Position numbers and translations under genes: made by a program. Under the pieces are notes generated by a model. The model was not told the origin of the DNA. It did not search any database and saw nothing but the letters and a program-made list of their open reading frames with translations. Below, piece by piece: positions 6,757-47,161 of a DNA stretch of 64,000 bases. Within the stretch, counting starts at the first letter, position 1; every line of letters begins with the position of its first letter. Origin of the DNA: Bacteroidaceae bacterium (GTDB lineage Bacteria > Bacteroidota > Bacteroidia > Bacteroidales > Bacteroidaceae). The DNA is taken from the NCBI GenBank assembly GCA_017469685.1, contig JAFUFW010000055.1, positions 40,044 through 104,043 of the forward strand, read 5' to 3'.

Positions 6757-9999
<3,243 letters not shown>

Positions 10000-10070
10000 C
10001 GAAAAAGCAGACCCACCCTCTCCCCGTGAGGGAGGGAGGGGTCACCTGTCAAGAATAGTTTTCACTGATA

Positions 10071-12110
10071 ATGAGCAAAACACATCTGTCAACAAAGGAA
10101 AACGCCCCCTCACTCAAAGTGAGGACTGGGGGTGAGTCTGCTTCATCTCTCATCTCGAAGGTTGGGAGAGGATTTTTATGGTGGCTTCCAGTCGTTGCCC
10201 TCATCATCGTAGCGGGCATCAGACTGACCTCACAAGAAAACGAGATGCTACTTCGGGCACAGGAGCTTAACCTTTGGCTGCCGACAGGCCTTTTTTGGAA
10301 GACTCTCATGCAGTACCCCGGCGGCGCTGCCACTTGGCTCGCCACCTACCTCACGCAGTACTTCTACCACCCTTGGCTCGGAGTGTCCATCCTCTGCATC
10401 CTGTGGCTCATCATCTGCCTCCTGTTGGCATTTGTCTATAAGCTCAAAGGGCCATGGACGATGCTCACAGCTTTAGTGCCCATGGCCCTGTTGGCCTGCA
10501 TCGTACAGACGGGCTATTGGATTTACTATCAGAAGCTTCCCGGGCATCTCTTCATTCCCACTGTAGGCATCCTTTTCGTTACCCTCTGCCTCGTCGTTCA
10601 GCGGCTCATTGACAAGTCTCTCCCTGCAAAGGCAGCCATGTGGGCACACTTCGTCTGGATGACTCTTGTGTGCATCATCGGCTACCCCTTCTTCGGAGCC
10701 TGGGCGCTGGGAGCTACAGCGCTGCTGGGAGTCAGCCCCCTCACCGCTTCCCCCGATGGAAAGGAGAAGGGCGGGCTCAAGAGCTCTTTTCCCTTGTGGG
10801 GAGTTAGATGGTGGCTTCTTATTCTTTACGCCATTCTCCTTATCACCGTCATTCCACAGCTCTATTATCAACATATATTCGGAATGACAGAGCGCACATT
10901 CGTCTACGCCGCAGCCATGCCATGCTTCCGCTACAGCAAAGACTCTTTCGAGATTTTCAGGCTGCCCTACTATGCCATAATCCTTGCTTTCACAATCCTT
11001 GCATTGGTTAGTGCAGGCGAAAGCTCTGCCTTCAACAAACGGCTGAAGGCACAAGTGAAAAGCATCATAGCGCTTTCACTCCTCTTCATCGCCATCATAG
11101 GCGTGCGTGCTTCATGGTACCACGATGTCAACTTCCAGAAAGAGCTGGCTATGAACAGGGCCATCGAAGAGCTCGATTGGGAACGCGTCCTTACCATCGC
11201 TCGCGATGGCAGCAGCGACATAAAGCCGACCCGGCAGATGGTGATGTACAAAAACCTCGCCCTCTTCCGCCTCGGGCGAGCCGGCAACGAGATGTTCAAC
11301 TACCCCGAAGGAGCCACACAGCAAAACGCGCCGTGGAAAGTGCGCATGACACAGATCGGAGCCAAACTAATCTATTACCACCACGGCAAGGAGAACTTCT
11401 GCTACCGCTGGTGTATGGAAGACGGAGTAGAGTTCGGATGGAAAGCCGAAACACTAAAATTCATGGCGCGCACAAGCCTGCTCAACAGAGAGTGGACGGT
11501 AGCACGCAAGTATCTCAACCTCCTGAAGAAGACAACGTTCCACCGAGCATGGGCCGAGCGCTACGAGAAATATCTTGCCACACCAGATGCTTTCGACCTT
11601 GAGAAACTTGAAGCCTCAGCCAAAGCTGGCAAGCCACTCCTCGACGAGCAAGGCATGAAGGAGTTTGCACCCATCCTGCACATGATGACCTATCCAGACC
11701 GCCTTGATGGCGACAATTCGCTCGTCGAGATGTACCTCATACAGACCTTCGGCAAAGGCAATGGCGACGATCCTCTCTTCCAGGAGATGACACTCATAGG
11801 AGCGCTCTACATGAAGGACATAGACCTCTTCTGGCCTCGCTTCATGAAGTATGCTACCACAAACCCCGACGTACACATGCCACGCCACTATCAGGAAGCT
11901 GCTTACCTCTACGGACATCTCGAGAACAAGGTGGACATCAGCCACATGCCCTTCGATCAAGAGGTGCGCGACACCTACGAACGCTTCATGAAATTCAACG
12001 AGCAGTGCGGCCTTATGACCGAGGAGCAGAAAGCCATCGCCTTCTATCCCCAGTTCGGCAACACCTTCTACTACTTCTACTTCCTCGTACGCAACCAAAA
12101 GACGAATTAA
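10071..12110 (+). CDS. polytopic membrane protein with a C-terminal helical soluble domain (possibly DUF6057-type)
   Basis: 679-aa ORF. The N-terminal roughly 340 aa contain many hydrophobic helices and the C-terminal roughly 330 aa are hydrophilic and helical. The stop is 3 nt before the next gene. The family name is from memory only. Confidence 0.55.
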   Translation: MSKTHLSTKENAPSLKVRTGGESASSLISKVGRGFLWWLPVVALIIVAGIRLTSQENEMLLRAQELNLWLPTGLFWKTLMQYPGGAATWLATYLTQYFYHPWLGVSILCILWLIICLLLAFVYKLKGPWTMLTALVPMALLACIVQTGYWIYYQKLPGHLFIPTVGILFVTLCLVVQRLIDKSLPAKAAMWAHFVWMTLVCIIGYPFFGAWALGATALLGVSPLTASPDGKEKGGLKSSFPLWGVRWWLLILYAILLITVIPQLYYQHIFGMTERTFVYAAAMPCFRYSKDSFEIFRLPYYAIILAFTILALVSAGESSAFNKRLKAQVKSIIALSLLFIAIIGVRASWYHDVNFQKELAMNRAIEELDWERVLTIARDGSSDIKPTRQMVMYKNLALFRLGRAGNEMFNYPEGATQQNAPWKVRMTQIGAKLIYYHHGKENFCYRWCMEDGVEFGWKAETLKFMARTSLLNREWTVARKYLNLLKKTTFHRAWAERYEKYLATPDAFDLEKLEASAKAGKPLLDEQGMKEFAPILHMMTYPDRLDGDNSLVEMYLIQTFGKGNGDDPLFQEMTLIGALYMKDIDLFWPRFMKYATTNPDVHMPRHYQEAAYLYGHLENKVDISHMPFDQEVRDTYERFMKFNEQCGLMTEEQKAIAFYPQFGNTFYYFYFLVRNQKTN

Positions 12111-12113
12111 GAC

Positions 12114-13814
12114 ATGACAGAAAAAAAGAAAAGGCAATGGCCGCTATGGGCCGTCGTTGGCCTTGTACTATTCCACATAATTCTGTTCGCAGCTACTGGC
12201 AAAGCCATCTTCGGCAGTTCTGCAAAAGTGCCATCATCGTTTACCGAGACCAACGACCTCCCCACCATCTATCCCGACTATGTCGGTGTCACAGTGCCTG
12301 CGAACATCGCTCCACTGCATTTCCACATCGACCACGACTCCGAAGCAACTGATTTCGTCACACGCCTCACCGCAGGTTCTGAGTCGTGGGCACTATCAGG
12401 CGATGATGTCCGCCCAGGACTAAAGAAATGGCACAAGATGGTCGACATGGCTCTCGCCGCCGAAGGCAATATCAACATTGAAGTTTTCATAAAGCGAGAA
12501 GATCGGTGGCTGCGTCAAAAGCCGTTCCAGATAACGGTCAGCACGGACAGCATCGACCCCTACATCTCCTATCGCCTCATCTCGCCCTCCTACGTCACCT
12601 ACGAGGACCTCACCCTCAATCAGCGATGCCTCGAGAACTTCGACGAAAGCCTCATCTATGGCAACATGATCAACTCCGATGAGGAAAACGGACAATGCAT
12701 CAACTGCCACCACGCTCAATGGTACAATCCCAACCGCGTACAGTTCCACGTACGCCAACATCTTGGAGGAACCGTTATCGCCTACGATGGCAAGGTCCAG
12801 AAAATTGACCTCAAGACGGATAGCACCATATCGGCAGGCGTCTATCCAACGTGGCACCCCACCAAGCCTTGGATAGTATATTCCACCAACAACACCGGAC
12901 AGAGCTTCCACACACGCGACGTAAAAAAGATCGAGGTTCAGGACACAAAGTCCAATCTCATCTTCTTCGACCTCGAGAGCAACACCGTCACGCCCATCAC
13001 CCGCGACACCACAGACTTCGATTGCTTCCCCTTCTGGAGTCCTGATGGTAAATACGTCTACTACGTAAGTGCTCATTGGGAGCGTCGCGACACCATCAAT
13101 ATGGATTTCGAGCTCATCCAAAACTACAAGGAAGTCCAGTATAACCTTTACCGGATTCCCTTTAACGAGAAAGACCAGACTTTCGGCCCACGCGAACTCA
13201 TCTACGACGCCGTTGCCCGCAACCGCAGCGTGACACTTCCACGTGTTTCTCCCGACGGCCGTTGGCTGATGTTCACTGAAGGACAGTTCGGAGTCTTCCA
13301 CATTTGGCACAATGATGCCGACCTATTCCTAATGGACCTCACCCAGGCCCAGCCTGTAGAGCCCACACACATCAATACCTACGACCGCCACAGGCTCTCA
13401 GAATATCTATTACCTCCTGATGCCAATAACCTACAGCGCGAAATCATCGCCGACAGCCTACGCGAAGAGCAGGGGCTGAGGACCCCACTCCCTGCTCACA
13501 TTCGCAACATCACAGAGATTAACTCGCCTGATGTCGAGAGCTACCATTCATGGTCGTCCAACGGTTGCTGGGTTATCTTCTCATCGCGCCGCGATGACGG
13601 CAATTTCACACGCCCCTTCATTGCTCACCACGACGGCAACGGACATTTCTCAAAGCCTTTTGAGCTGCCGCAGGACAACCCGCAGTACCATCGCCAGTTC
13701 ATGCGCAGCTACAACATTCCCGAGTTCCTCTTCGGGCCCGTAACCATACGGCCCCAGGAATTCGCCTCTGTCATCAAAAAAGACGCGACCAAAGCACAAC
13801 TCAAAATCAAATGA
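12114..13814 (+). CDS. PD40/TolB-like beta-propeller protein with a single CXXCH heme-c motif
   Basis: N-terminal TM/signal anchor. CINCH lies at nt 12696-12710. PD40-like repeats include FWSPDGKYVYYVS, RVSPDGRWLMFTE and WSSNGCWVIFSS. Confidence 0.7.
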   Translation: MTEKKKRQWPLWAVVGLVLFHIILFAATGKAIFGSSAKVPSSFTETNDLPTIYPDYVGVTVPANIAPLHFHIDHDSEATDFVTRLTAGSESWALSGDDVRPGLKKWHKMVDMALAAEGNINIEVFIKREDRWLRQKPFQITVSTDSIDPYISYRLISPSYVTYEDLTLNQRCLENFDESLIYGNMINSDEENGQCINCHHAQWYNPNRVQFHVRQHLGGTVIAYDGKVQKIDLKTDSTISAGVYPTWHPTKPWIVYSTNNTGQSFHTRDVKKIEVQDTKSNLIFFDLESNTVTPITRDTTDFDCFPFWSPDGKYVYYVSAHWERRDTINMDFELIQNYKEVQYNLYRIPFNEKDQTFGPRELIYDAVARNRSVTLPRVSPDGRWLMFTEGQFGVFHIWHNDADLFLMDLTQAQPVEPTHINTYDRHRLSEYLLPPDANNLQREIIADSLREEQGLRTPLPAHIRNITEINSPDVESYHSWSSNGCWVIFSSRRDDGNFTRPFIAHHDGNGHFSKPFELPQDNPQYHRQFMRSYNIPEFLFGPVTIRPQEFASVIKKDATKAQLKIK

Positions 13815-16093
13815 AGATGAAGAAGTCAGTATTATTTATCATTTATAATATATTATTTATTATTTCGGCAGTAGCCCAAGGCACCATCGACGACTACAAC
13901 CGTGCCTACTCTGCCTCCCGAACCTTCACTTGGGCTAAGGTCAAGAACTACGTCGACGACGCACGCTGGCTCCCCGACGGTCGTTTCCAGTACCACCTCA
14001 CCGACGGCGCCAGTGGCACATGGCATTTCGGCCAAGTCAACCCCGACGGCAGCATCACCCTCGCCGACAGTACCGCCGACCGTCCCATCGAAACGCCTAA
14101 CAATGATACGTTTCGCTCGCGACGCTTCACCCGCCGCGACCAAGGCCAGGGAGCCGTACGCTTCATTGCCAACCCATCAAAGCGCCGGCAGGAGCGCCAC
14201 TGGATGGAAACCGACGATGAGCGCGGCGCTGACCCAGTCTTCTCGCCCGACTCGTCACTCGTTGCCTTCATCCGCAACGACAACGTCTACATAGCACGCC
14301 CCGACGGCAGCAATGCCCGAGCCCTCAGCACCGAAGGCACCATCAGTCATTACTTCAGCAGCTATATCTCATGGAGTCCCGACGGCCGCTACGTGGCTGT
14401 CAACCGCATACGTCCCATCGACAAACGCTATGTCTATTATGTCGAGTCCTCACCCGCCGACCAGCTGCAGCCCATTCTCCACAAGCAGGAATATGCCAAG
14501 CCAGGCGACGAACTTGCACAGAAGACGCCCTACATTTTCGAAGTAGCCACCGGCCGTGCCATAACTCCCTCTCCCGACCTCATCGTCAACCAGTACGACC
14601 TCTCCCGACTCGAATGGTGCAACGACTCCCACGCCATTCGTTTCGAATACAACCAGCGCGGCCACCACCTCTACCGCGTCTACGAGATGGCCGTCCAAGG
14701 CGATGTCCGCACACTCATCGAGGAGCGCGAGGAGAAATACGTCCGCTACTCCAATAACTACCGTCGCGACCTCTGCGGAGACAGCCTTATCCTCTGGCTC
14801 TCTGAACGTGACGGTTTCCCACACCTCTACCTCTTCAACACCACAGTCTCCACCGCCAAAAAAGCATCCAAACGTCCCGCCCGAGGCAGTTTCCCCACCT
14901 CGTTTAAAGCCTCCGCCACAGAGTGCCCCTCTTTTCAGCTCACCTCCGGTTCCTGGTGCGTCCGCCGCGTCGTCCACATTGACGAGGAGAAAGGCTTCCT
15001 CATCTTCACCGCCAACGGACGTGGAGCCGCAATGGATTGCGCCTCTCTCGACGCCAAGCCCGAAGATCCCTACAACATACATTACTTCCGCGTAGGCCTC
15101 GACGGCAAAGGCCTTGTAGACCTCACTCCAGAGGACGGCAACCACAACGCACGCTTCAACGAGGACTACAGCGCCCTCATCGACACCTATTCCACTCAGG
15201 ACACGCCCCCCACGACCGTGGTTCGTTCTTTAAGCGGTAATTCCATTTCCGCCAAAACCCTCGCTACAGCAGACATCACCGACCTCCTCTCCGCAGGCTG
15301 GACCTCTCCCGAGATATTCGTTGCCCCTGGCCGCGACGGCGTTACCCCCATGTGGGGAATCATCCAGCGCCCCACACACTTCGACCCTACCCGCAAGTAC
15401 CCCGTCATAGAATACATCTATGCCGGCCCCGGCGACAGCTATACCCCCAAGTCCTTCCAGCCCTTCAACTACTACACCACCGCCCTTGCCGAGCTCGGTT
15501 TCATCGTCGTTCAGCTCGACGCCATGGGCACCAGCAACCGTGGCAAGAAGTTTGAAGAGGTCTGCTACAAAAATCTGAAGGACGCAGGTTTCCCCGACCG
15601 CATCGCATGGATGAAGGCCGCTGCTGCCAAATATCCATATATGGACATCGACCGCGTAGGCATCTATGGTTGCTCTGCCGGCGGCCAGGAAAGTACTGCG
15701 GCCGTCCTCTTCCACGGCGATTTCTACAAAGCCGCCTACAGCGCCTGCGGCTGCCACGACAACCGCATGGACAAGATCTGGTGGAACGAGCAATGGATGT
15801 CCTATCCTGTCGACTCATCATATATCAAGTGCTCTAATCTCGAGAATGCCTACCGCCTCGAGCGTCCTCTGATGCTCGTCGTCGGTGAGCTCGACGACAA
15901 TGTCGACCCCGCCAGCACGATGCAAGTCGCCAACGCCCTCATCAAGGCCAACAAACCTTTCGAGCTCGTCGTCATCCCCGGCGCTCACCACACCGTCGGC
16001 GAAGCCTATGGCGAACACAAGCGCTACGACTTCTTCGTCAAGCACCTTTTTGATGTCAATCCACCCGCCTGGAACGAGGTGAAGACCAAATAA
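13811..16093 (+). CDS. S9-family serine peptidase (DPP-IV-like N-terminal propeller plus prolyl-oligopeptidase catalytic domain)
   Basis: ATGA start/stop overlap with the upstream gene. Nucleophile elbow GIYGCSAGGQ. Candidate Asp is in VGELDDNVD and candidate His in PGAHHTV. An N-terminal signal peptide is present. Confidence 0.85.
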   Translation: MKMKKSVLFIIYNILFIISAVAQGTIDDYNRAYSASRTFTWAKVKNYVDDARWLPDGRFQYHLTDGASGTWHFGQVNPDGSITLADSTADRPIETPNNDTFRSRRFTRRDQGQGAVRFIANPSKRRQERHWMETDDERGADPVFSPDSSLVAFIRNDNVYIARPDGSNARALSTEGTISHYFSSYISWSPDGRYVAVNRIRPIDKRYVYYVESSPADQLQPILHKQEYAKPGDELAQKTPYIFEVATGRAITPSPDLIVNQYDLSRLEWCNDSHAIRFEYNQRGHHLYRVYEMAVQGDVRTLIEEREEKYVRYSNNYRRDLCGDSLILWLSERDGFPHLYLFNTTVSTAKKASKRPARGSFPTSFKASATECPSFQLTSGSWCVRRVVHIDEEKGFLIFTANGRGAAMDCASLDAKPEDPYNIHYFRVGLDGKGLVDLTPEDGNHNARFNEDYSALIDTYSTQDTPPTTVVRSLSGNSISAKTLATADITDLLSAGWTSPEIFVAPGRDGVTPMWGIIQRPTHFDPTRKYPVIEYIYAGPGDSYTPKSFQPFNYYTTALAELGFIVVQLDAMGTSNRGKKFEEVCYKNLKDAGFPDRIAWMKAAAAKYPYMDIDRVGIYGCSAGGQESTAAVLFHGDFYKAAYSACGCHDNRMDKIWWNEQWMSYPVDSSYIKCSNLENAYRLERPLMLVVGELDDNVDPASTMQVANALIKANKPFELVVIPGAHHTVGEAYGEHKRYDFFVKHLFDVNPPAWNEVKTK
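13830..13865 (+). repeat. solo copy of an AT-rich repeat (same family as 17197-17230 and 17591-17628)
   Basis: tattatttatcatttataatatattatttattattt encodes LFIIYNILFII of the signal peptide. By my hand alignment it matches the 17.6 kb copy at 33 of 39 nt. Confidence 0.5.
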
Positions 16094-16099
16094 TAGAAA

Positions 16100-17209
16100 A
16101 TGGAACCAATCCTCACAGAACAACAAATAGCCCTCTGGCACTCTCTCATCGCAGCAGCCCGACACATCGTCATCACCTGCCACCGCGGCCCCGATGGCGA
16201 TGCCATAGGCTCCGCCACGGCCCTCTCATCATGGCTTCAGCGCCACTATCCCGAAGCAGACATCCACATCATTGCCCCAAATATCTTCCCCGACTTCCTG
16301 AAATGGATTCCAGAAGCCGAAGATATTCTCATCTATGATAAACACGAGGACGAGGTAAATCCCATCATCGAAGCTGCCGACCTCGTCATCATGTGCGACC
16401 ATGGCGAGCTCAAACGTATGGCCACCCTGGGTGATGCCATTCGCCCTCTCCTACCCTCCGGCGGAGCACCTGAAGGCCGCACCCGCTGCATAATGATTGA
16501 CCACCATCTCGACCCAGAGCCTGGCATCGCCGATCTGGTCATTTCTCATCCCGACCTCTCTTCCACTTGCGAGGTACTGATGCGAGTGATGATGGAGACC
16601 TCCCCTCTCTCTCACAGGGAGAAGCTTGTTGGGGGGGCTGGCCTCCTCACCCAATCTGAAGCCACATCCCTCTACACAGGCATGATGACCGACACCGGAG
16701 CCTTCACCTACGCCAGCAACCGCCCCGAAATCTTCGAGCTCATCAGCATTCTCCTCCAATACGGCATCGACAAGGACAAGATCTACCGCAACGTCTTCTT
16801 CACCTACAGCCACAACCGCATGAAGCTCATGGGCTACATGCTCTACGTGAAGCTCGATGTTTGGAAGAAAGCCCACACCTCTGTCATGACGTTCACCAAC
16901 GCCGAGCGCCGTCGCTTCGGCATACTCAACGGCGACACCGAGGGCCTCGTCAACCTCCCACTTCAGATTCTCGGCATGAAGCTTTCCGTCTTCCTGCGCG
17001 AGGACACCGAGCACCCTTGCATCCGCGTCAGCCTCCGCTCCGTCGACGACTTCCCCTGCAACGAGATGGCAGCCGAGTTCTTCGGCGGCGGCGGTCACAA
17101 GAACGCTGCCGGCGGCGAGGTTTGGGGAACCATGGACGATGCCCTCGCCCTCGTAAAGAAAGCCGTACAGAAATATATGCCGCTCCTGAAGGAGGGAGAT
17201 AATAAATAA
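16100..17209 (+). CDS. DHH-family phosphoesterase (NrnA-like oligoribonuclease/pAp phosphatase)
   Basis: Motifs HRGPDGDAIGS, IMIDHHLD, MMTDTGAFTY and GGGGHKNAAGG (DHHA1). Confidence 0.85.
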   Translation: MEPILTEQQIALWHSLIAAARHIVITCHRGPDGDAIGSATALSSWLQRHYPEADIHIIAPNIFPDFLKWIPEAEDILIYDKHEDEVNPIIEAADLVIMCDHGELKRMATLGDAIRPLLPSGGAPEGRTRCIMIDHHLDPEPGIADLVISHPDLSSTCEVLMRVMMETSPLSHREKLVGGAGLLTQSEATSLYTGMMTDTGAFTYASNRPEIFELISILLQYGIDKDKIYRNVFFTYSHNRMKLMGYMLYVKLDVWKKAHTSVMTFTNAERRRFGILNGDTEGLVNLPLQILGMKLSVFLREDTEHPCIRVSLRSVDDFPCNEMAAEFFGGGGHKNAAGGEVWGTMDDALALVKKAVQKYMPLLKEGDNK

Positions 17210-17230
17210 TAAATGATAAATAATAACATA
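17197..17230. repeat. left inverted-repeat arm flanking the four-helix-bundle gene
   Basis: The reverse complement of agataataaataataaatgataaataataac matches 17591-17621 at 28 of 31 nt by hand. The arm contains the DHH gene's tandem stops and the ATG at 17213. Confidence 0.55.
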
Positions 17231-17569
17231 CTTGCTGAAAAGAGCACTAACTTTGGTGTAAGGATGGTGCACTGTCATCAGTTCTTGACAAGGGAAAAGA
17301 AAGAGTATGTTCTTTCAAAACAGATATATCGCAGCGGAACTAGCATTGGAGCCAACATACATGAAGGAGTTTTTGCACAAAGCAAAGCTGATTTCATATC
17401 CAAGTTGGGAATAGCCTTAAAAGAAGCTGGAGAAACTGCATATTGGCTAAAATTATTATTTCGTTCAAATTACCTTGATGAACATCTCTATAACTCGCTT
17501 CATACTGACTGCGAAGAACTCATAAAAATATTAACTGCAACTATCAAATCCTCAAAAGAAAACCTATAG
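17213..17569 (+). CDS. four-helix-bundle protein (23S rRNA intervening-sequence protein / Avd-like family)
   Basis: Diagnostic core EYVLSKQIYRSGTSIGANIHEG...KADFISKLGIALKEAGETAYWLKLL. The gene is visibly AT-rich relative to its neighbours. Confidence 0.85.
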   Translation: MINNNILAEKSTNFGVRMVHCHQFLTREKKEYVLSKQIYRSGTSIGANIHEGVFAQSKADFISKLGIALKEAGETAYWLKLLFRSNYLDEHLYNSLHTDCEELIKILTATIKSSKENL

Positions 17570-17573
17570 CACT

Positions 17574-20120
17574 ATGAAACCATCATCGAAGTTATTATTT
17601 ATTATCTATTATTTATTATTTATCATTTCAGCACCAGTTTCAGCCTCCACCGATGATGCCGCCGCTGTCCTCAACCAAATCATCAAGGTCAACAACTACT
17701 GGCAGGCTCACAACACCCCCTACGTCCGCTCCTTCTGGGACCACGCCGCCTACCACACCGGCAACATGGAAGCCTACCACCTCACCGGCCGTGCCGACTG
17801 GTACGCCTACACCGACAAGTGGTGCCGCCACAACGAGTGGAAAGGTGCCAAGAGCGACGACCGCAAGAATTGGAAGTACAAAACCTACGGCGAAGGGCAG
17901 GATTTCGTTCTCTTCGGCGACTGGCAGATTTGCTTCCAGACATATATAGATATGTACAACCTCGTGCCCGCACCCTACAAGGTGGCCCGCGCCATCGAGG
18001 TGATGAGCCACGAATGCTCCATGGAGGACACCCACTTCTGGTGGTGGGCCGATGCCCTCTACATGGTCATGCCCGTCATGACGAAGATGTACAAGCTCAC
18101 CGGCGAGGTGAAATATCTCGATAAGCTCTACGAGAACTTCCTCTGGAGCGACAGCCTCATGTACGACCCCGACGAACAGCTCTACTACCGCGATGCCAAG
18201 TACATCTACCCCAAGGTGAAGACTGCCTGCGACGACGGCAAGAGCTTCTGGGCACGCGGCGACGGCTGGGTGCTGGCCGGTCTGGCCAAGGTGCTGGCCG
18301 ACATGCCGCAGGACTACAAGAACCGCACCATCTTCGTGCAGCGCTTCCGTGAGCTCGCCGAGGGCGTAGCCCGCGTGCAGCGCCCCGATGGCTACTGGAG
18401 CCGCTCCATGCTCTGCGAGGATGATGCTCCAGGCCCCGAGACCTCCGGCACTGCCTTCTTCACCTATGGTATGCTCTGGGGTGTCAACCACGGCTATCTC
18501 GACCGCGACCGCTTCCTGCCCGTCATCCATAAAGCTTGGAAGTACCTCAGCGAGACAGCCCTGCAACCCGACGGCAGCATCGGCTTCGTGCAGCCCATCG
18601 GCGAGAAGCCCGACCCCACCAAGACCGTTGACGCCCACTCCCAAGCCCCCTTTGGCACGGGTGCATGGCTCCTTGCTGCCTGCGAGATGGTCCGTTTCCT
18701 CGATGCCGATCCGCTCGTCCCCGCTCCCAACCCCGATGCCATTACCAACTCCATCTACCACCACACCCCTGGCACCCCAACCGTCAGCGGCCCCGTAGGC
18801 GGCGGTTCGTCCGTCGCCATCGCTCCCTCTGGCTCCCCCACCGCTGCTGACCCTCGCCTCCGCCATACTGGCCACAAGAGCTTGGGCAGCTATGAAATCA
18901 AGAACCCCACGGCCGACAACATCGCCCAAGTCGTGGAAATCACCACAATCGAAGCCCTCCGCAAGGCAGGCATCGCCGTTGCCCGAGAGTTCTTCTTCCT
19001 CGACGGCGACCGCAACGAAGTGCCCTACCAGATTACCCACGACGGCCGCGTGCTCGTCTTCTGCAGCGTGCGCCCCCATAGCAGCATCATCCTCACAATG
19101 TACAAAGGTCAGCCCCTCGACTATGAACTCACCGCCAACGGACGCATCTACCCCAACCGCTGGGACGACCTCGTATGGGAGAACGACCGCGGCGCTTGGC
19201 GTTTCTATGGTCCTGGTGCCCACAAGAATATGAAAAACAACGCCTACGGATTCGACACCTTCGTCAAGAACACCCCCCACCCCATCCAGGACCAGCTCTA
19301 CCACAACGAACTCACCTCCTACGGCGTCAACGAGCGCATCAAGCGCGACAAGAGCTCACTCAACTGGAACGAAGTGCACCGCGGCTACACCTACCACCGC
19401 AACCACGGCGCAGGCATGGATGCCTACACCGTCGGTGCCACTCTCGGAGCCGGTGCAGCAGCACTCATAGCCCCCTCAACGCTAAACGCGAAACGCTCAA
19501 CTCCAGATCTATTATATCCTCTCTATTACGAGACTGCAGAAATTCTCGACAACGGTCCCCTCCGCTTCACCGTCCGTATGACTATGCCCGCCCGCCCATC
19601 GACAGCGCTCGGCGGTTCTGTCGCCGAGTCCCCCGCCGACTCTATCCGCGAAGTCCGCCTCATCACCCAGGACTGCGGCAGTCACTTTGCCCGTGTCGAA
19701 GTCACCTACGAGGGTCTCGAACATCCCACCCCCGTCTGTGCCGGCATTGTGGTTCATGAGAGCAACCCAGACGGCTACGTCCTCAACCAGAAAGAAGGCT
19801 TCGTCACCTACGCCGAGGCCCTCGACCATCCTGAGACCATGAACGGCGAGCACTACCTCGGAATCTTCATGCCGCAGATACAAGAGAAGAAGAAAAAAGA
19901 GAAAACCGAGGTGAAATATATCCCTCTCACCGAAAAGCGTGCTGGCGGCATCGGTCACGCCATCATCCAGACCACCTACACCCCTGGCCAACCCTTCGTC
20001 TACTATACCGGCAGCGCCTGGAGCCTCTATGACGTTCCCACCCACGCCATCTGGCAGCAGACCCTCCGCCACGAAGCCAGCATCCTGCAGCACGGCCTCC
20101 AGGTGACTATTGATGATTAA
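17574..20120 (+). CDS. GH88/GH105-family unsaturated glycuronyl hydrolase fused to a DUF4861-like C-terminal domain
   Basis: The N-terminal half carries FWWWADALYMVMPVM and FWARGDGWVLAGLAKVL, typical of PF07470-type hydrolases. The C-terminal half carries WENDRGAWRFYGPG...GFDTFVKN...GAGMDAYTVGATLGAGA, which resembles DUF4861. Confidence 0.75.
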   Translation: MKPSSKLLFIIYYLLFIISAPVSASTDDAAAVLNQIIKVNNYWQAHNTPYVRSFWDHAAYHTGNMEAYHLTGRADWYAYTDKWCRHNEWKGAKSDDRKNWKYKTYGEGQDFVLFGDWQICFQTYIDMYNLVPAPYKVARAIEVMSHECSMEDTHFWWWADALYMVMPVMTKMYKLTGEVKYLDKLYENFLWSDSLMYDPDEQLYYRDAKYIYPKVKTACDDGKSFWARGDGWVLAGLAKVLADMPQDYKNRTIFVQRFRELAEGVARVQRPDGYWSRSMLCEDDAPGPETSGTAFFTYGMLWGVNHGYLDRDRFLPVIHKAWKYLSETALQPDGSIGFVQPIGEKPDPTKTVDAHSQAPFGTGAWLLAACEMVRFLDADPLVPAPNPDAITNSIYHHTPGTPTVSGPVGGGSSVAIAPSGSPTAADPRLRHTGHKSLGSYEIKNPTADNIAQVVEITTIEALRKAGIAVAREFFFLDGDRNEVPYQITHDGRVLVFCSVRPHSSIILTMYKGQPLDYELTANGRIYPNRWDDLVWENDRGAWRFYGPGAHKNMKNNAYGFDTFVKNTPHPIQDQLYHNELTSYGVNERIKRDKSSLNWNEVHRGYTYHRNHGAGMDAYTVGATLGAGAAALIAPSTLNAKRSTPDLLYPLYYETAEILDNGPLRFTVRMTMPARPSTALGGSVAESPADSIREVRLITQDCGSHFARVEVTYEGLEHPTPVCAGIVVHESNPDGYVLNQKEGFVTYAEALDHPETMNGEHYLGIFMPQIQEKKKKEKTEVKYIPLTEKRAGGIGHAIIQTTYTPGQPFVYYTGSAWSLYDVPTHAIWQQTLRHEASILQHGLQVTIDD
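17591..17628. repeat. right inverted-repeat arm flanking the four-helix-bundle gene
   Basis: gttattatttattatctattatttattatttatcattt lies inside the GH88/105 gene and encodes LLFIIYYLLFIIS. Confidence 0.55.
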
Positions 20121-20203
20121 ATAATAAGTAGGTAGTCATCATTTATCATCGGAAAAGATCGTTTTCACTTGGCCGGGTCAACAAATTCGCCTTCCTTTGT
20201 GGC

Positions 20204-20385
20204 ATGAAACGCTGGCTCACTCTCCTCCTGCTTGTTTTGGCCATAACCGCCTACGCTGTGTTCCAGTTCAAAGGCGAATTTCCCTTTACCTATCCCATTC
20301 CGCTCGGGGAAGATACGTTAACCATGACGGTTCCATCACCATCGCCAACGTGACCGCCCTCGTGAACATCATCCTCGGGAAATAG
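20204..20385 (+). pseudogene. small secreted dockerin-repeat-like gene, apparently frameshifted
   Basis: The ATG at 20204 gives signal peptide MKRWLTLLLLVLAITAYA and stops at 20351-20353. A different frame encodes the Ca-loop/helix-like VNHDGSITIANVTALVNIILGK, ending at 20385. Confidence 0.3.
20316..20372 (+). repeat. 57-bp direct repeat, copy 1
   Basis: cgttaaccatgacggttccatcaccatcgccaacgtgaccgccctcgtgaacatcat matches 21398-21454 at 54 of 57 nt by hand count. Confidence 0.85.
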
Positions 20386-20404
20386 ACTACCATTCCACAA
20401 ACGC

Positions 20405-20452
20405 CTCCGCCGCCAGCAGCCTCATTATCGTGAGGAGTTGCTGGCGGCGGAG
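20405..20452 (-). terminator. strong GC-rich hairpin downstream of the HEPN gene (terminator candidate)
   Basis: The 14-bp perfect outer stem ctccgccgccagca / tgctggcggcggag is extended by the inner stem cctca/tgagg. Only a weak T-tract follows on the minus strand. Confidence 0.4.
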
Positions 20453-20504
20453 TGGGTTGTGTGGGTTAAAGGGTTAAAGTGACAGCCTTGATTGGCCAAT
20501 AACT

Positions 20505-20921
20505 TCATTTTGGTTCTCCTTTCGGCTCTGATATGTAGTTGCGGATTTTGTTGATGAGTTGGCGAGTTGGGTCGATGTATGGAGTGAGCTTTTCCTCGTC
20601 TGCTTCAAAGAAACAATTGTAATCTGCATTGTCTCGCATAATAACCAAATCAGAAAGCAAGGAACCATCGCGACGCTCAAAGATACCAGTACGCACATAA
20701 TGCTCTCCAAACAAAGCCATTATACCTCGATGGCTTTTAACATTATGGCCGTCATGTATAAGAAGCGCAGATGTTGCATGGAAAAGTGCGTAGTAAAGAC
20801 GATTGGCTGCTGCTTCCCATTTACCTTCTCTTGCACAGAAATCCATATCATCGAATGTCCTTTGGGCTTTCTCAAGCTCGCGGCTGACAACTATCCGGCG
20901 TTCGCTTTCACTTAGACTCAT
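20505..20921 (-). CDS. HEPN-domain protein (toxin of a HEPN/MNT pair)
   Basis: 138 aa with helical HEPN-like sequence including LYYALFHATSALL and the C-terminal MRDNADYN motif region. It overlaps the upstream MNT gene by 4 nt. Confidence 0.8.
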   Translation of the reverse strand: MSLSESERRIVVSRELEKAQRTFDDMDFCAREGKWEAAANRLYYALFHATSALLIHDGHNVKSHRGIMALFGEHYVRTGIFERRDGSLLSDLVIMRDNADYNCFFEADEEKLTPYIDPTRQLINKIRNYISEPKGEPK

Positions 20922-21235
20922 AGCAAAACTTGTTTATCTTCTTCCACATTATAGAAGAATGGGGAATGGGGGCCATTGTACCAGTCATCTTTGGTGTAAG
21001 CATGTGGGCGTATATCTTCTCCGATATTCCAACCCATTTCTACAAACGGATAAGAATAACGGTCGAAGTCTTCGAAGTCCAATCGAGCCTTGTCGAGCAG
21101 CAAAAGCAAATCCCAATCAGAGTCTTTGTGGTGGTCTCCACGCGCACGAGAACCATATAAGTATAAACTACTTCCACGTGGCAACACCTTGGCTGCCACC
21201 TGCTTTATATTGTCTATGACCTGTAAGTTCTCCAT
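20918..21235 (-). CDS. minimal nucleotidyltransferase (MNT antitoxin partner)
   Basis: LYLYGSRARGDHHKDSDWDLLLLL matches the GSxxxG...DxD signature of the pol-beta NTase fold. The protein is 105 aa. Confidence 0.85.
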   Translation of the reverse strand: MENLQVIDNIKQVAAKVLPRGSSLYLYGSRARGDHHKDSDWDLLLLLDKARLDFEDFDRYSYPFVEMGWNIGEDIRPHAYTKDDWYNGPHSPFFYNVEEDKQVLL

Positions 21236-21257
21236 CGTCTACCGCTTTATCTGTCTG

Positions 21258-21265
21258 CAAATATA
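21258..21265 (-). promoter_or_regulatory. -7 promoter box (TATATTTG) for the MNT-HEPN operon
   Basis: The minus strand reads tatatttgcag, about 23 nt upstream of the MNT start. Confidence 0.45.
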
Positions 21266-21397
21266 TGGAAGAACTTCGATACAGACAAAAAAAAAGCCTT
21301 ATTTCTCTAAATCAAAATGTTTTTTACCAGTTTCAGAGAAATAAACGAAAGAATAATGGGACATAATGGCGATGAAATATGACTTCGACGACGACGA

Positions 21398-21454
21398 CGT
21401 TAACCATGACGATTCCATGACCATCGCCGACGTGACCGCCCTCGTGAACATCAT
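21398..21454 (+). repeat. 57-bp direct repeat, copy 2
   Basis: cgttaaccatgacgattccatgaccatcgccgacgtgaccgccctcgtgaacatcat lies in a short ORF MAMKYDFDDDDVNHDDSMTIADVTALVNII that starts at 21367. Confidence 0.85.
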
Positions 21455-21560
21455 TCAAAGTTTTTTTCTTCATTTTTCCCTCAATCCCTCAAACCTGTTG
21501 ATTCTCGGGTCGTTAAGGCTGAGGGAAGGCTGAGAATTTGCATAAATGTATTATTTGACA

Positions 21561-21568
21561 TATCTTTG
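21561..21568 (+). promoter_or_regulatory. -7 promoter box (TATCTTTG)
   Basis: tatctttgcag lies about 70 nt upstream of the ATG at 21638. Confidence 0.4.
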
Positions 21569-21637
21569 CAGCCGAAAAACAACAGGGCGTTGACACGACG
21601 TCCAATTTCTTAACCTTTTATCTATTATAATTCATCT

Positions 21638-22078
21638 ATGGAAAACAACATTTTCTCCAAAATGCCCGTCAACTGGACGGTGTGCATGCAGGCCGACTGC
21701 CCTCTGCACGGGGGGTGTCTGCGCTATCAAGCCTTCGAACACATCAAGACGCTCTACTCGCGACAGAGCTGCGTGCTGCCATCGGCGCGTGACGAGAAGG
21801 GATGCCGCTACCACATCCCCTTCGTCAAAGTGCAGGTGGCGTGGGGGATGCGCGAGTTGCTCTCCGACATCAAGAAGAGCGATGCCAGGCAGATGCGAGC
21901 ACACATCAAGGCGCTCTTCCGCAGCCATTCCACCTACTACCGCTACTACAACGGCCACTACTCCATCTCTCCACGACAGCAGCAGGCTATCCGCCGCATC
22001 TTCAAGAGCTTTGGCTACGACCCCGACTGCGTTCGCTTCGACCGAGTCGAGCGGAACTACTTCTTTCCTCAATCGTAG
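21638..22078 (+). CDS. Cys-rich hypothetical protein
   Basis: 146-aa ORF with an N-terminal CMQADCPLHGGC...SC...GC cluster and a basic C-terminal half. I recognise no family. Confidence 0.5.
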   Translation: MENNIFSKMPVNWTVCMQADCPLHGGCLRYQAFEHIKTLYSRQSCVLPSARDEKGCRYHIPFVKVQVAWGMRELLSDIKKSDARQMRAHIKALFRSHSTYYRYYNGHYSISPRQQQAIRRIFKSFGYDPDCVRFDRVERNYFFPQS

Positions 22079-22085
22079 TCCCTCA

Positions 22086-22283
22086 CACCTATAGGAGTAT
22101 CGCCGGGTTCCACTGGTGGAACTCGTCAATTCAATCAATGGAACTCGACAATTCCATCAATGGAACTCGCCAACACTCCTATATCTTATACCTCATCCAT
22201 TCATAACCTTTTAATCTCACAACCTTATATCTTTATAACCTTTTAATCTCACAACTTTATAACCTTTTAACCTTAATTCATTT
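22086..22283 (+). promoter_or_regulatory. iteron-like repeat array
   Basis: TGGAACTCG occurs at 22117, 22139 and 22160. These copies are bracketed by the 9-bp inverted repeat tataggagt (22090-22098) / actcctata (22175-22183). Further on, ataaccttttaatctcacaac occurs at 22203-22223 and 22235-22255, with a partial third copy at 22259-22272. Confidence 0.6.
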
Positions 22284-23462
22284 ATGAAAGCACAAGACAC
22301 TAACGTTTTCGACATGATTCACAATGAATTGCGCGAAGTATTCCAGTTCCGCTACAACACCATCATGGGCTACACAGAGTACATGTCACCCTGCGCCGAG
22401 CCCGCCAACTGGACGCCCGTGACGCCTCGCGAACTGAACACATTGACCAACTACCTCATCGGCGCCGGCCTGCACGTATGGGATCGCGACGTTCGACGCT
22501 ACATCAACTCGCGCGATGTGCCCGACCACAACCCCGTGCAGGATTACCTCAAGAAGCTGGAAGGAAGCTGGGACGGGCGCGACCGCATCCGTACCCTCGC
22601 CCGCTGCGTGCCCACCGACAGTCCCCGCCAGTGGACGTCGTGGTTTCATCGGTGGTTCCTGGCTATGGTGGCACAGTGGCAGGGGCACAACGGCCTCTAC
22701 GGCAATGCCATCGTGCCACTGCTGATCTCGCCTCAAGGCATGCGCAAGAGCACTTTCTGCCGTTCGCTGCTGCCTCCCGAACTGCGCTCCTGGGGCTATA
22801 GCGACAACCTGTCGCTGAAGGACGAGCGCAAAGTGCATCTGGCCATGAGCCAGCTGTTGCTCATCAACCTCGACGAGTTCAACAGCATCTCGGCACATAA
22901 GCAGTCGGGCATGCTGAAGAACCTCGTTCAGCTGCCTACGGTCATGATCCAGCGTCCGTATGCGCGCCACATCGAGGAAGCACCCCGCATGGCCTCCTTC
23001 ATAGCCACCACCAATATGTCGCAGGTGCTGACCGACCTCTCAGGCTCGCGTCGCTTCATCGGCGTACAGCTCACAGGGCCCATCCGCATCCCCCGTCGCA
23101 TCGACTACGAACAGCTCTATGCCCAGGCCGTCGATGAGCTCAACCGCGGCGTCCGTTTCTGGTTCACCGATGCTGAGACGAAGCGCGTGATGGAGCACAA
23201 CCGCCGTTTCCAGATGCCTACGGATGCCGGGGCCTACTTCCTCGAACATTTCTGTCTTCCCTCCGGCAAGGGCGACGGAGAGTGGCTCTCAGCCGCTGCC
23301 ATCATCGAGCACATCAAGGCGTGTGCCCGCTCTTCCTTCCAAGCCCCCAGCGTAACGAAGATGGGCCATATCCTCAGCCACATCCCCGGCCTCGAACATC
23401 GCCACACGGCCTACGGCGAGCGCTATCACGTCTGCCGCCGAAGCAATCCCATCGCGGCATAG
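22284..23462 (+). CDS. VapE/VirE-family (virulence-associated protein E-like) P-loop NTPase with a DUF3874-like tail
   Basis: NPVQDYLKKLEGSWDGRDRI, LLISPQGMRKSTFCRSLLP, LLLINLDEFN and SFIATTNMSQVLTDLSGSRRF match the PF05272-type layout as I remember it. Confidence 0.7.
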   Translation: MKAQDTNVFDMIHNELREVFQFRYNTIMGYTEYMSPCAEPANWTPVTPRELNTLTNYLIGAGLHVWDRDVRRYINSRDVPDHNPVQDYLKKLEGSWDGRDRIRTLARCVPTDSPRQWTSWFHRWFLAMVAQWQGHNGLYGNAIVPLLISPQGMRKSTFCRSLLPPELRSWGYSDNLSLKDERKVHLAMSQLLLINLDEFNSISAHKQSGMLKNLVQLPTVMIQRPYARHIEEAPRMASFIATTNMSQVLTDLSGSRRFIGVQLTGPIRIPRRIDYEQLYAQAVDELNRGVRFWFTDAETKRVMEHNRRFQMPTDAGAYFLEHFCLPSGKGDGEWLSAAAIIEHIKACARSSFQAPSVTKMGHILSHIPGLEHRHTAYGERYHVCRRSNPIAA

Positions 23463-23479
23463 CCCGCTGAGCCTTTTGC

Positions 23480-23562
23480 GCCTCCATTTCCCTCATTCCC
23501 TCAGCTTTCCCTCAGCCTTAATCGACTGACAACCAACAAGTATGAGGAAATGAGGCTTTTTT
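23480..23562 (+). terminator. long hairpin plus T-tract after the VapE-like gene
   Basis: gcctccatttccctcat pairs with atgaggaaatgaggc (two bulges) and is followed by tttttt. The large loop carries the right inverted-repeat arm. Confidence 0.35.
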
Positions 23563-23775
23563 CTGCAAAAAAATAAAAAACATGCTGGGCACTTGGCTGG
23601 GCCTGGAGAATCAAGTTTTGTGTCAGCCATTTCTGCATTTTCAATTACGTTGCAAATGTTCCAAAAACATTGCTGAATGTCTCAACCAGTGCAAAAACAT
23701 TCTTTTTTCTTCTGCCATTTGTTTTCTTTTATCTAATTTTACCGCCGAAATCAACATTATTACAGCTCTACAGCT

Positions 23776-24237
23776 ATGAAAAAGAGATTGCTGTTTATCT
23801 TATTGTTTGGCTTCTGCGCTGCGGTGTCGGCTCAGAAGGTGTATCGAGGCATCTCGCCCTACGCGTCGGACGTCATCTGCACCATCGACAAGGGTAAGGT
23901 CTTCAAGGGCAACTCTTCGTTTGCGTCAGACATCATCGTACGATTCGACGGCACAAGCCTGTACCGTGGCAACAGCCCTTACTCGAGTGACATCATCATG
24001 ACCTGGCGCGACGGCAAAATCTACCGAGGCACGTCGTCATACAGTTCCGATGTCCTGGCCACCTGGCGCGACGGCAAGCTCTACAGCGGTACGTCGCCAT
24101 ACCAGTCAGATGTACTGCTCACATACAAGGAGAATAAAGTCTATCGCCAGAACAGCCCTTACCAGAGCGATGTGCTGATGACAACATCTGCCTACGTCCA
24201 CCCTATAATCCTATTCCTCATAAGCCTCACCCCCTGA
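23776..24237 (+). CDS. secreted protein made of six tandem 20-aa repeats
   Basis: Signal peptide MKKRLLFILLFGFCAAVSAQ is followed by 6 repeats of the form K-h-Y-R-G-x-S-x-Y-x-S-D-h-h-x-T-x-x-D-G. The underlying 60-bp DNA repeats are clearest at 24001-24120. Confidence 0.7.
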   Translation: MKKRLLFILLFGFCAAVSAQKVYRGISPYASDVICTIDKGKVFKGNSSFASDIIVRFDGTSLYRGNSPYSSDIIMTWRDGKIYRGTSSYSSDVLATWRDGKLYSGTSPYQSDVLLTYKENKVYRQNSPYQSDVLMTTSAYVHPIILFLISLTP

Positions 24238-24327
24238 CCCCTCTCCACAAGGATAGGGGGAAGCCGGAATGAAAAGGATTGAAGAAGGATAATTGAAAGA
24301 TGGTAATATTGATAATAATAATTTAAA

Positions 24328-26979: not shown

Positions 26980-26993
26980 CCCCCGGCGACTTC

Positions 26994-47129: not shown

Positions 47130-47161
47130 AAAAAAAGCCTCCGTCACTCGGAGGCTTTTTT
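47130..47161. terminator. bidirectional Rho-independent terminator
   Basis: aaaaaaa-gcctccg-tcact-cggaggc-tttttt. It overlaps the last codons of the minus-strand esterase gene. Confidence 0.75.

Follow-up and report, generated by a model that had tools for sequence, protein, structure and literature searches.

Introduction

The closest described counterparts of the element reported here are the intervening sequences of 23S rRNA genes that carry a gene for the small protein S23p. In Coxiella the intervening sequence is 428-444 nt long and is bounded by a 28-bp terminal stem that is cut by RNase III; three to four tandem GACAGAT heptamers precede the S23p ATG, and its GC content is ~36% in a genome of 42.5% (PMC4990558). 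The origin and function of such sequences are described as unclear, with an old proposal of mobility being cited, and the origin, mobility and function of the S23p-bearing ones have been open questions since ~1990 (PMC4990558). Four-helix-bundle genes of Bacteroidota are also found wedged between housekeeping genes with gaps of ~35-90 nt, as between gmk and nadD in Flavobacterium columnare (PMC5524665). Here we analyse a gene of this kind in a 64,000-nt stretch of DNA from a Bacteroidaceae bacterium (contig JAFUFW010000055.1; this whole stretch is called the window, and all coordinates are positions on its forward strand), where it lies between a DHH phosphoesterase gene and a GH88 glycoside hydrolase gene and is bracketed by an inverted repeat.

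We assign a probability of about 0.72 to the reading that this element is a selfish cassette of the intervening-sequence type, residing in the spacer of a co-transcribed DHH-GH88 gene pair in a genome placed among the rumen Prevotellaceae. By comparison with orthologous loci it is a discrete unit of insertion or deletion relative to ~20 related species, and it decays in place in some lineages. The initial annotation had linked the protein family to 23S rRNA insertions; the family is indeed the same, and the element is better described as an equivalent of these insertions that is carried on mRNA. Neither the protein family nor its rRNA-borne elements are new. In the literature searched, older subscription papers being beyond reach, no description was found of paired co-varying heptamer arrays, of an asymmetry between stop-rich and open-frame arrays or of signal-peptide donation in copies outside rRNA.

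Organization of the Cassette at the DHH-GH88 Junction

Three closely spaced genes are encoded by the forward strand. The DHH/DHHA1 phosphoesterase gene (16100-17209; taken from the list of open reading frames (ORFs), PF01368 and PF02272, with orthologues in ~80 genomes) is separated by 3 nt from an ORF of 118 amino acids (aa; 17213-17569, with ATG at 17213 and a TAG stop codon at 17567-17569). A further 4 nt separate the latter from the gene of a glycoside hydrolase with GH88 and DUF4861 domains (17574-20120; PF07470 and PF16153, with support from synteny). The GC content of the small ORF is 35%, compared to 58% in the 1 kb upstream and 61% in the 1 kb downstream. Both the gaps of 3-4 nt and the contrast between an AT-rich ORF and its GC-rich neighbours had been pointed out in the initial annotation.

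A repeat search identified an inverted repeat of 29 nt (17199-17227 and 17591-17619), complementary at 27/29 positions (93%) and spaced by 363 nt. The 31-mers aligned by hand in the initial annotation were recounted and match at 28/31 positions, as claimed; in 20,000 shuffles of the arms alone, keeping their A/T composition, the mean best match was 18.2 and the maximum 25, so that 28 was never reached. The description of the arms as an inverted repeat is correct and can be refined, because they are not unique sequences: they are imperfect tandem heptamer arrays, with (ATAATAA)4 as the left and (TTATTAT)5 as the right array, and a third array is found at 13826-13868. The left arm (17199-17226, forward strand, repeat search) consists of the four A-rich units ATAATAA, ATAATAA, ATGATAA and ATAATAA. 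It holds the last codons of the DHH gene (GDNK; the 3′ end reads GGA GAT AAT AAA TAA) with its stop codon, which is doubled (TAA at 17207-17209 and at 17210-17212), and the ATG of the small ORF (17213) within the third heptamer, exactly the overlap that had been proposed. The right arm (17592-17626, forward strand, repeat search and RNA fold) is the reverse complement of the left one and consists of the five T-rich units TTATTAT, TTATTAT, CTATTAT, TTATTAT and TTATCAT.

The right arm is translated in the GH88 frame as LLFIIYYLLFII. Together with the GH88 start codon it belongs to a predicted signal peptide of 25 aa, MKPSSKLLFIIYYLLFIISAPVSAS (17574-17648, forward strand), which was called by eye from a basic N-region, a hydrophobic core and small residues ahead of the cut. 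The GH88 domain match in Pfam begins at residue 37, the next Met is found near residue 64 and there is no other start codon upstream of the domain; GH88 therefore depends on the ATG brought by the cassette. Relative to the nearest cassette-free species (locus L004), foreign sequence begins within the left arm and extends to ~17642, where identity between the window and L004 resumes. The right end of the cassette is consequently displaced from position 17628, where the initial annotation had set it, and the segment ~17574-17642 is cassette-borne, having no counterpart in species that lack the cassette. The earlier assignment of the right arm to the core of the GH88 signal peptide was correct and understated the case: beyond a mere overlap with the start of the gene, the cassette is the predicted source of the whole GH88 start codon and signal peptide. 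The complete unit measures ~430-445 nt (432 nt was used for comparison with Coxiella).

The Bacteroidetes −7 motif TAnnTTTG occurs once within the ORF, at 17248, and is not conserved in the related carrier locus L006. Scans of the window with Rfam (for rRNA or any other family), PADLOC and PHROGs gave no match.

The Four-Helix-Bundle Protein

The small ORF matches the 23S rRNA intervening-sequence protein family PF05635 (Pfam, E 2e-28) and TIGR02436, "four helix bundle protein" (NCBIfam, E 4e-32), as the initial annotation had recognized from the translation. In these two databases it matches no other family and no known transposase family. Its nearest solved structure is PDB 2RLD (E 6.5e-36). 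An exact-sequence look-up of the protein returned no match, and no additional paralogue was found within the 64-kb window or in 82 DHH loci. Comparison with the orthologous ORF of L006 gives a ratio of nonsynonymous to synonymous substitution rates (dN/dS) of 0.045, by which measure the protein is under strong purifying selection and functional.

Two ENA metagenome contigs, L001 and L002, are from the window species (99.9% identity over 4021 nt, zero gaps). The ORF is 100% identical in both (L001, 7114-7467; L002, 3374-3727) and was not called as a gene in either of them: the annotation of these public contigs leaves a gap of 365 nt between DHH and GH88. Such four-helix-bundle cassettes are probably under-annotated.

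PF05635 includes relatives of Avd, the accessory protein of diversity-generating retroelements (PMC10053308), and the gene might be an orphan Avd of such a retroelement; the heptamer tract might alternatively act as a slipped-strand phase-variation switch on GH88, as adding or removing a single 7-nt unit would put GH88 out of frame and heptamer copy number differs among Coxiella strains. We regard this pair of explanations as hardly credible. Neither reverse transcriptase nor transposase or recombinase domains were found in the 34 window ORFs scanned (32 of ≥200 aa, plus a 138-aa HEPN and a 105-aa nucleotidyltransferase ORF), and no direct repeat of the template/variable type was found in positions 9000-27000, in agreement with what had been noted earlier by eye. 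The heptamer units are imperfect, and the window, L001 and L002 align without gaps over 4 kb, with no change in tract length.

Presence, Decay and History of the Cassette in Related Species

Relatives were collected by a scan of one genome per species, which yielded 80 loci with DHH relatives, from metagenome assemblies of rumen or gut Prevotellaceae or Bacteroidaceae. About 25 species (DHH identity 66-82%) share the gene order PD40-repeat gene, S9 peptidase, DHH, GH88. Among them an intact four-helix-bundle ORF is found only in the window species (including L001 and L002) and in L006 (85% aa identity). L008 carries a remnant composed of both arms with the initial ~50 nt and the terminal ~75 nt of the ORF, while in L003 only ~25 nt of the ORF 3′ end, the spacer, the ATG and the AT-rich signal peptide are left; decay may have gone further still in L021. 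The site is empty in ~20 other species, GH88 being found 15-200 nt after DHH and starting with an unrelated signal peptide of normal GC content (MKKLLSLLVLFVATMSQPLP...). The empty sites envisaged in the initial annotation, where DHH abuts GH88, thus exist next to the remnants of L008 and L003. The cassette-free relatives do not have the AT-rich gene ends, because their GH88 signal peptide is a different, GC-normal one; L004 keeps an 11-nt scar of the left arm only.

Carriers do not form one clade in a neighbour-joining tree of four flanking proteins, which were concatenated to 2308 columns and bootstrapped 100 times. The empty L004 is the sister of the window (83% bootstrap), L006 is nested in an otherwise empty clade (97%) and L008 groups with the empty L016 as its sister (100%). 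Between the window and L004, sliding-window identity is 91-93% in the 3′ part of DHH and 92-95% from 17642 on, while in the same flanking stretches the identity to the carrier L006 is 79-91%. The DHH gene of L004 ends with KEGENK*, encoded by gagaataaataata, that is, a window-like ending to which the initial 11 nt of the left arm are attached. A second DHH 3′ end lies 17 nt further on (cctcaaagccgaataa, similar to L007 and L013), followed by a GC-normal signal peptide. This scar suggests that the cassette was replaced by a foreign allele in the L004 lineage.

Synonymous divergence (dS) between the cassettes of the window and of L006 is ~2.0. It is saturated like that of the host genes (1.0-2.5), and the cassette is therefore old at this locus. 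Its history here appears to be dominated by decay and replacement and not by fresh insertion. The initial proposal of a mobile or formerly mobile unit is supported by presence and absence among species and by transfer in relatives (see below), with the correction that the element is an old resident of this junction.

In L009, L014, L015, L017, L024 and L030 the DHH stop codon is followed by another kind of A-rich array, (GTGAAAA)n, which suggests an independent visit to the same spacer by another member of the family.

The signal peptide of the empty allele contains a palindromic hairpin, and insertion of the cassette into its loop was also considered, by analogy with the rRNA loops that house intervening sequences; it was rejected because the hairpin halves do not flank the cassette.

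Transfer of the Unit in Relatives

Recent transfer is indicated by relatives at other loci and not by the window locus. The cassettes of L103 and L109 are 99.6% identical while the upstream flank, the only one compared, is 77.6% identical. Those of L095 and L097 share 97.3% identity in flanks of 87% (upstream) and 73% (downstream), and those of L095 and L111 share 93% in flanks of 78% and 80%, respectively. Identity switches within a few bases on the left side, at a short GC-rich hairpin directly outside the array (tcgtgcggacgctgcgctacgc followed by taatgaat...), and on the right side just past a GC hairpin (...atttagccccgcaggggcgca). Cassette identity far above flank identity, together with sharp edges, points to recent horizontal transfer of a discrete unit in these relatives, all of which are metagenome assemblies.

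The distribution at the window locus could also be explained without autonomous mobility of the cassette: the DHH-GH88 junction would exist as two old alleles, one having the four-helix-bundle gene together with the AT-rich signal peptide and one lacking them, which related species swap by homologous recombination, and the arrays would only play a role at the RNA or translational level. Agreeing with such allele exchange are a cassette divergence that is about that of the host genes, the L004 scar with its 11 nt of left arm, second DHH 3′ end and other allele, the patchy distribution in the tree and the lack of a transposase or recombinase in the 34 ORFs scanned. We consider it unlikely for four reasons. 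The flanks are L004-like right up to the cassette, with ~92% identity on the left (17020-17170) and 92-95% to the right of 17642. Near-identical cassettes lying in flanks of 73-87% identity, with edges at the GC hairpin and array, would not be expected from recombination between diverged flanks. Members of the family are found at many unrelated junctions, for example before fmt, gyrB and several hydrolase genes. Finally, (GTGAAAA)n in the same spacer of another clade suggests a separate insertion.

Paired Heptamer Arrays across the Family

A metagenome scan with the protein identified more than 456 relatives, from which 80 loci with 50-85% identity were retained. Ungapped inverted-repeat scores, computed between the segment −100 to +20 of the ATG and the segment −20 to +120 of the stop codon, are typically 18-34, compared to a mean of ~7 and maxima of 8-15 in shuffles. 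A tandem-array detector was then applied to the 67 loci with at least 160 nt of flank on both sides. Arrays were present on both sides in 40 of them, and in 31 the two had the same period (7, occasionally 8) and the right unit was the reverse complement of the left one within one mismatch. For 5000 random intervals of 357 nt from the same loci the corresponding numbers are 5 and 0. What recurs around other copies is consequently the architecture of the arms that the initial annotation had described (31/67 versus 0/5000), while their sequence differs: 19 distinct units were found, including AAATGAT, AAATAAT, AAAAGAT, AATAATG, AATTGAT, AGTTGAT, AAGAGTG, AATTACT and ACTAGGG. On the contig L108 two cassettes are separated by 950 nt, and they differ in their units, each of which matches its own partner. 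A unit that is free to vary while the arms co-vary is predicted by selection for pairing, and not by a fixed site of protein recognition.

Cassettes are strongly oriented. In 47 of the 49 cases that could be scored, the gene upstream runs in the same direction as the cassette, and the gene downstream does so in 47 of 58. Among 41 non-redundant cassettes, the stop codon of the upstream gene is inside the left array in 27 and at most 30 nt before it in 11 more. The two arrays also differ in their coding properties: stop codons in all three frames are found in 21/31 left arrays (35% of shuffles), and right arrays are free of stops in every frame in 24/31 cases (33% of shuffles). As an example, (TTATTAT)n is read as LLFIIYY in all three frames, and its complement (ATAATAA)n has TAA in all three.

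The right array provides the hydrophobic core of a signal-peptide-like N-terminus at no fewer than four unrelated loci. Such N-termini are found in GH88 (window, L083 and L084), in a PpiC-like protein (L087), in L090, in L103 and L117, and in a hydrolase starting with AQxWP...RWWWLGSA on eight contigs (e.g. MIKKKSSTIYLFFILSFIFSHAVAQQWP), for which the ATG falls within the terminal part of the four-helix-bundle ORF. At other loci the downstream gene starts after the array, as found for fmt, gyrB and flavoprotein genes. The overlap of the arms with coding ends is a habit of the family, since elsewhere too upstream stops lie in left arrays and N-termini in right arrays. The use of the right array as a signal peptide is, from its distribution over these loci, a recurrent exaptation.

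Downstream of the four-helix-bundle gene of L093 (3369-3530), a GC hairpin and three heptamers (gcggacttcgtcc-taaatgataaatgagaaatga) are repeated in direct tandem, in a module that resembles a small repeat-spacer array. It may explain the presence of PF05635 among the 'CRISPR-linked' genes of PMC10910872.

The orientation data bear on another explanation, in which a recombinase encoded elsewhere would flip the 363-bp segment and thereby exchange the N-terminus of GH88. Bacteroidales are rich in invertons. The element has 29-nt inverted repeats around a short segment, the reverse strand of its left arm also encodes LLFIIYYLL, and the reverse strand of the segment offers a start, GTG-MLFSASMLLFIIYYLL. 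An inverton is nevertheless highly improbable. All six carrier assemblies (window, L001, L002, L006, L083 and L084) show a single orientation, a count at the level of assemblies, which would miss rare flipping, and the co-orientation with the upstream gene in 47/49 cases would be erased by free flipping. Arm sequences vary without limit among cassettes, unlike recombinase sites, and the 34 window ORFs scanned include no recombinase.

Solo Heptamer Arrays

A motif search and a direct-repeat search identified a solo T-rich heptamer array at 13826-13868 (forward strand). In the S9 peptidase, whose start is predicted at 13811, this array encodes the hydrophobic core of the signal peptide, MKMKKSVLFIIYNILFIISAVAQG. 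It is related to 17593-17656 by a direct repeat of 64 nt with 75% identity. Over the whole window the two-unit 14-mer has 12 overlapping matches with at most two mismatches, compared to 0.08 expected; eleven of them are in three places, the two arms of the cassette and 13826-13868, and the remaining one is an isolated match with two mismatches at 47157. S9 orthologues are of two types, with a heptamer signal peptide (e.g. ATGAAGCGATATTTATCATTTATTATTTATCATTTATCATTTATCATTTCC, encoding MKRYLSFIIYHLSFIIS) or with a palindromic, GC-normal one. The heptamer type is found in S9 orthologues of ~12 relatives. The S9 arrays end in CATTTC(A/G)G, the same motif as the right arms of cassettes, and no four-helix-bundle ORF, remnant of it or partner arm was found beside them. 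We infer that they are probably cassette footprints, with L003 as an intermediate that would illustrate how a solo arm is left behind.

Heptamer arrays also occur elsewhere. A solo A-rich array, (AAATGAT)2(AAATAAT)2, lies directly after the S9 stop codon in L004 (5888-5922). This array, like the ones after DHH in the (GTGAAAA)n clade, may be a left-arm-only footprint of another cassette. Inside the GH88 gene, (AATGAAA)n is found in frame and encodes a PMKNEKLKxKNE loop in L009 (9482-9515), L010 (9326-9360), L016 (9424-9460) and L019 (9369-9405). These in-frame copies imply that a heptamer array can be embedded in a coding region even where no four-helix-bundle gene is present. In the window the corresponding site (~19878-19913) encodes a degenerate version, QEKKKKEKTE. 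In the spacers that carry it, (GTGAAAA)n precedes ATGAACAAAATAAC, a sequence similar to the beginning of a four-helix-bundle ORF.

Solo arrays are what would be expected if the inverted repeat were mimicked by coincidence, an A-rich array after a stop codon and a T-rich array in a signal peptide having arisen independently around a small gene: they are present in S9 signal peptides of ~12 species, after the S9 stop in L004, in DHH-GH88 spacers and within GH88. Coincidence is still very unlikely at the junction analysed here, where the AT-rich signal peptide is found in GH88 orthologues only alongside a four-helix-bundle ORF or its remnants. In the wider family the units differ among cassettes while the arms match (31 loci, compared to 0/5000 controls), and L003 shows a solo arm arising through deletion of the ORF.

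Proposed Mechanism and Weight of the Evidence

A selfish cassette with these features might operate as follows. Having no promoter of its own, it would ride on the host transcript. The left array would end the upstream ORF in any frame, since a stop in the heptamer falls in all three frames after three repeats (7 is not a multiple of 3), and would hand ribosomes to the adjacent ATG. The complementary T-rich array, with no stop in any frame, would encode Leu, Phe, Ile and Tyr. At the window locus the element's own ATG (MKPSSK), the right array and a short following stretch would have been recruited as the GH88 signal peptide, displacing the ancestral one. In the RNA the arms could pair into a stem of ~29 bp with the ORF closed in the loop, by analogy with the stem in 23S rRNA that is cut by RNase III. 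The predicted fold of 17185-17645 is compatible with this arrangement: the arms pair in both the minimum-free-energy and the centroid structure, together with a short inner helix that closes the ORF in a loop, and the energy is −101.6 kcal/mol compared to −86.0 ± 5.7 for shuffles (z = −2.7). Across the family at least 15 flank-to-flank pairs are found in the folds of 48/69 cassettes and also in 18/60 random controls, and this comparison was not counted as evidence.

Several observations weigh against a selfish cassette that moves and acts through its RNA. At the window locus there is no sign of recent movement, because the cassette is no more similar to its nearest relatives than the flanks are (79% nt identity to L083/L006, flanks 85-86%). 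No target-site duplication is visible at the junctions between filled and empty sites, which are replacements and not simple insertions, and neither the 64-kb window nor ~980 kb of related loci contain a second copy of the cassette. The replacement scar of L004 means that the patchy distribution could stem from allele exchange by homologous recombination and not from transposition. The arrays found alone in S9 signal peptides, spacers and GH88 may have originated independently of the cassette. A comparison of the arms for G·U wobbles on the sense strand gave 22 G·U against 33 A·C (p = 0.18), by which pairing in RNA and in DNA are not told apart. Cutting of the stem by RNase III would sever the GH88 mRNA within the signal peptide, which is hard to square with the retention of GH88. 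Finally, the relatives are all metagenome assemblies, in which repeats can produce chimeric joins.

More tentatively, and at somewhat less than even odds, we suggest a wider picture in which the 23S rRNA intervening sequences are the visible tip of a very large family of cassettes that lives mainly in mRNA operons, with arrays built for harmless insertion at gene junctions, repeated creation of signal peptides and solo-array footprints such as that of S9 (13826-13868). If the cassette is common in ordinary operons, the question of S23p is freed from the rRNA genes, where every copy is under constraint and manipulation is difficult. Natural experiments from which the ends and the target could be defined are offered by sites that are filled, decayed or empty and by near-identical copies whose flanks have diverged. 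The co-varying arms point to conserved pairing and not to a fixed recognition sequence, and their 7-nt period suggests a simple design rule for stop and start signals that are independent of frame. The terminal repeat of a selfish element would now serve a glycoside hydrolase, and probably also a peptidase, as a working signal peptide, a concrete route from mobile DNA to functional coding sequence.

Other Features of the Region

A palindromic module, GTTGCGA(C/T)-nnn-(G/A)TCGCAAC, encodes LFVA(T/I)xSQ in signal peptides. In the window it is found at 6805-6823, in a GH2 gene (ORF 6778-9999), and it occurs in the S9 and GH88 signal peptides of many relatives at ~25 sites/Mb (L006 3651, L009 7195, L012 3654, L013 3714 and 7209, among others). 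Its stem carries compensating substitutions (GTTGCTGT/ACAGCAAC and GCTGCAAC/GTTGCAGT), and such changes suggest a conserved hairpin inside the coding regions of signal peptides. GC-rich palindromes resembling repetitive extragenic palindromes (REP-like; e.g. cccctctccgattggagagggg) fill the S9-DHH spacers of relatives (L008, L009 and L016, ~5830-6000; L016, 7110-7170; L029, 7040-7200), and one in L016 is translated in the GH88 signal peptide (LLPLGGGWEG).

Two neighbouring segments of the window are also of distinct composition. A HEPN and nucleotidyltransferase gene pair, AT-rich and encoded by the minus strand (20505-21235), is flanked by a 58-nt direct repeat (20315-20372 and 21397-21454; 95% identity, spacing of 1082 nt) and resembles a module of the toxin-antitoxin type that was inserted, with a coding segment duplicated on each side. 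A VapE-like/DUF5906/DUF3874 ORF (22284-23462) lies in a stretch of lower GC content just downstream of GH88 and may belong to an integrated element.

Comparison with Known Systems

The window protein is by sequence a member of the TIGR02436/PF05635 paralogues of Bacteroidota, such as PDB 2RLD. It shares a homologous four-helix-bundle fold with Avd of diversity-generating retroelements (PMC10053308), from which the system differs by a wholly different gene context, with neither a reverse transcriptase (34 ORFs) nor template/variable repeats (9000-27000). Miniature inverted-repeat elements and transposons with terminal inverted repeats are similar in being short units between inverted repeats, present in some genomes and absent from others and found in decayed form as well. 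In the cassettes, by contrast, the arms are tandem arrays that vary between copies, no target-site duplication is seen, the conserved ORF does not code for a transposase and orientation with host transcription is strong.

The 23S rRNA elements of Coxiella burnetii, Leptospira and others that encode S23p are most similar. The protein family is the same, and the size of 432 nt compares with 428-444 nt and falls within the ~0.4-0.75 kb expected for such elements. An inverted-repeat stem of ~28-29 bp surrounds the ORF, tandem heptamers are found just before or over its ATG, and the GC content is below that of the host. In both, occurrence among relatives is sporadic with signs of horizontal transfer, and the ORF is on the strand of the host transcript. 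They differ in location, since the rRNA elements occupy a helix (9, 25 or 45) of 23S rRNA while the window element lies between two protein-coding genes in an mRNA operon, where RNase III excision, which in elements of this type is not followed by re-ligation, would harm the GH88 mRNA. The ORF of Coxiella is reportedly decaying and probably not expressed, while the window ORF has a dN/dS of 0.045. The arms of the window element are, in addition, translated, providing stop codons to the upstream gene and a predicted signal peptide to the downstream one.

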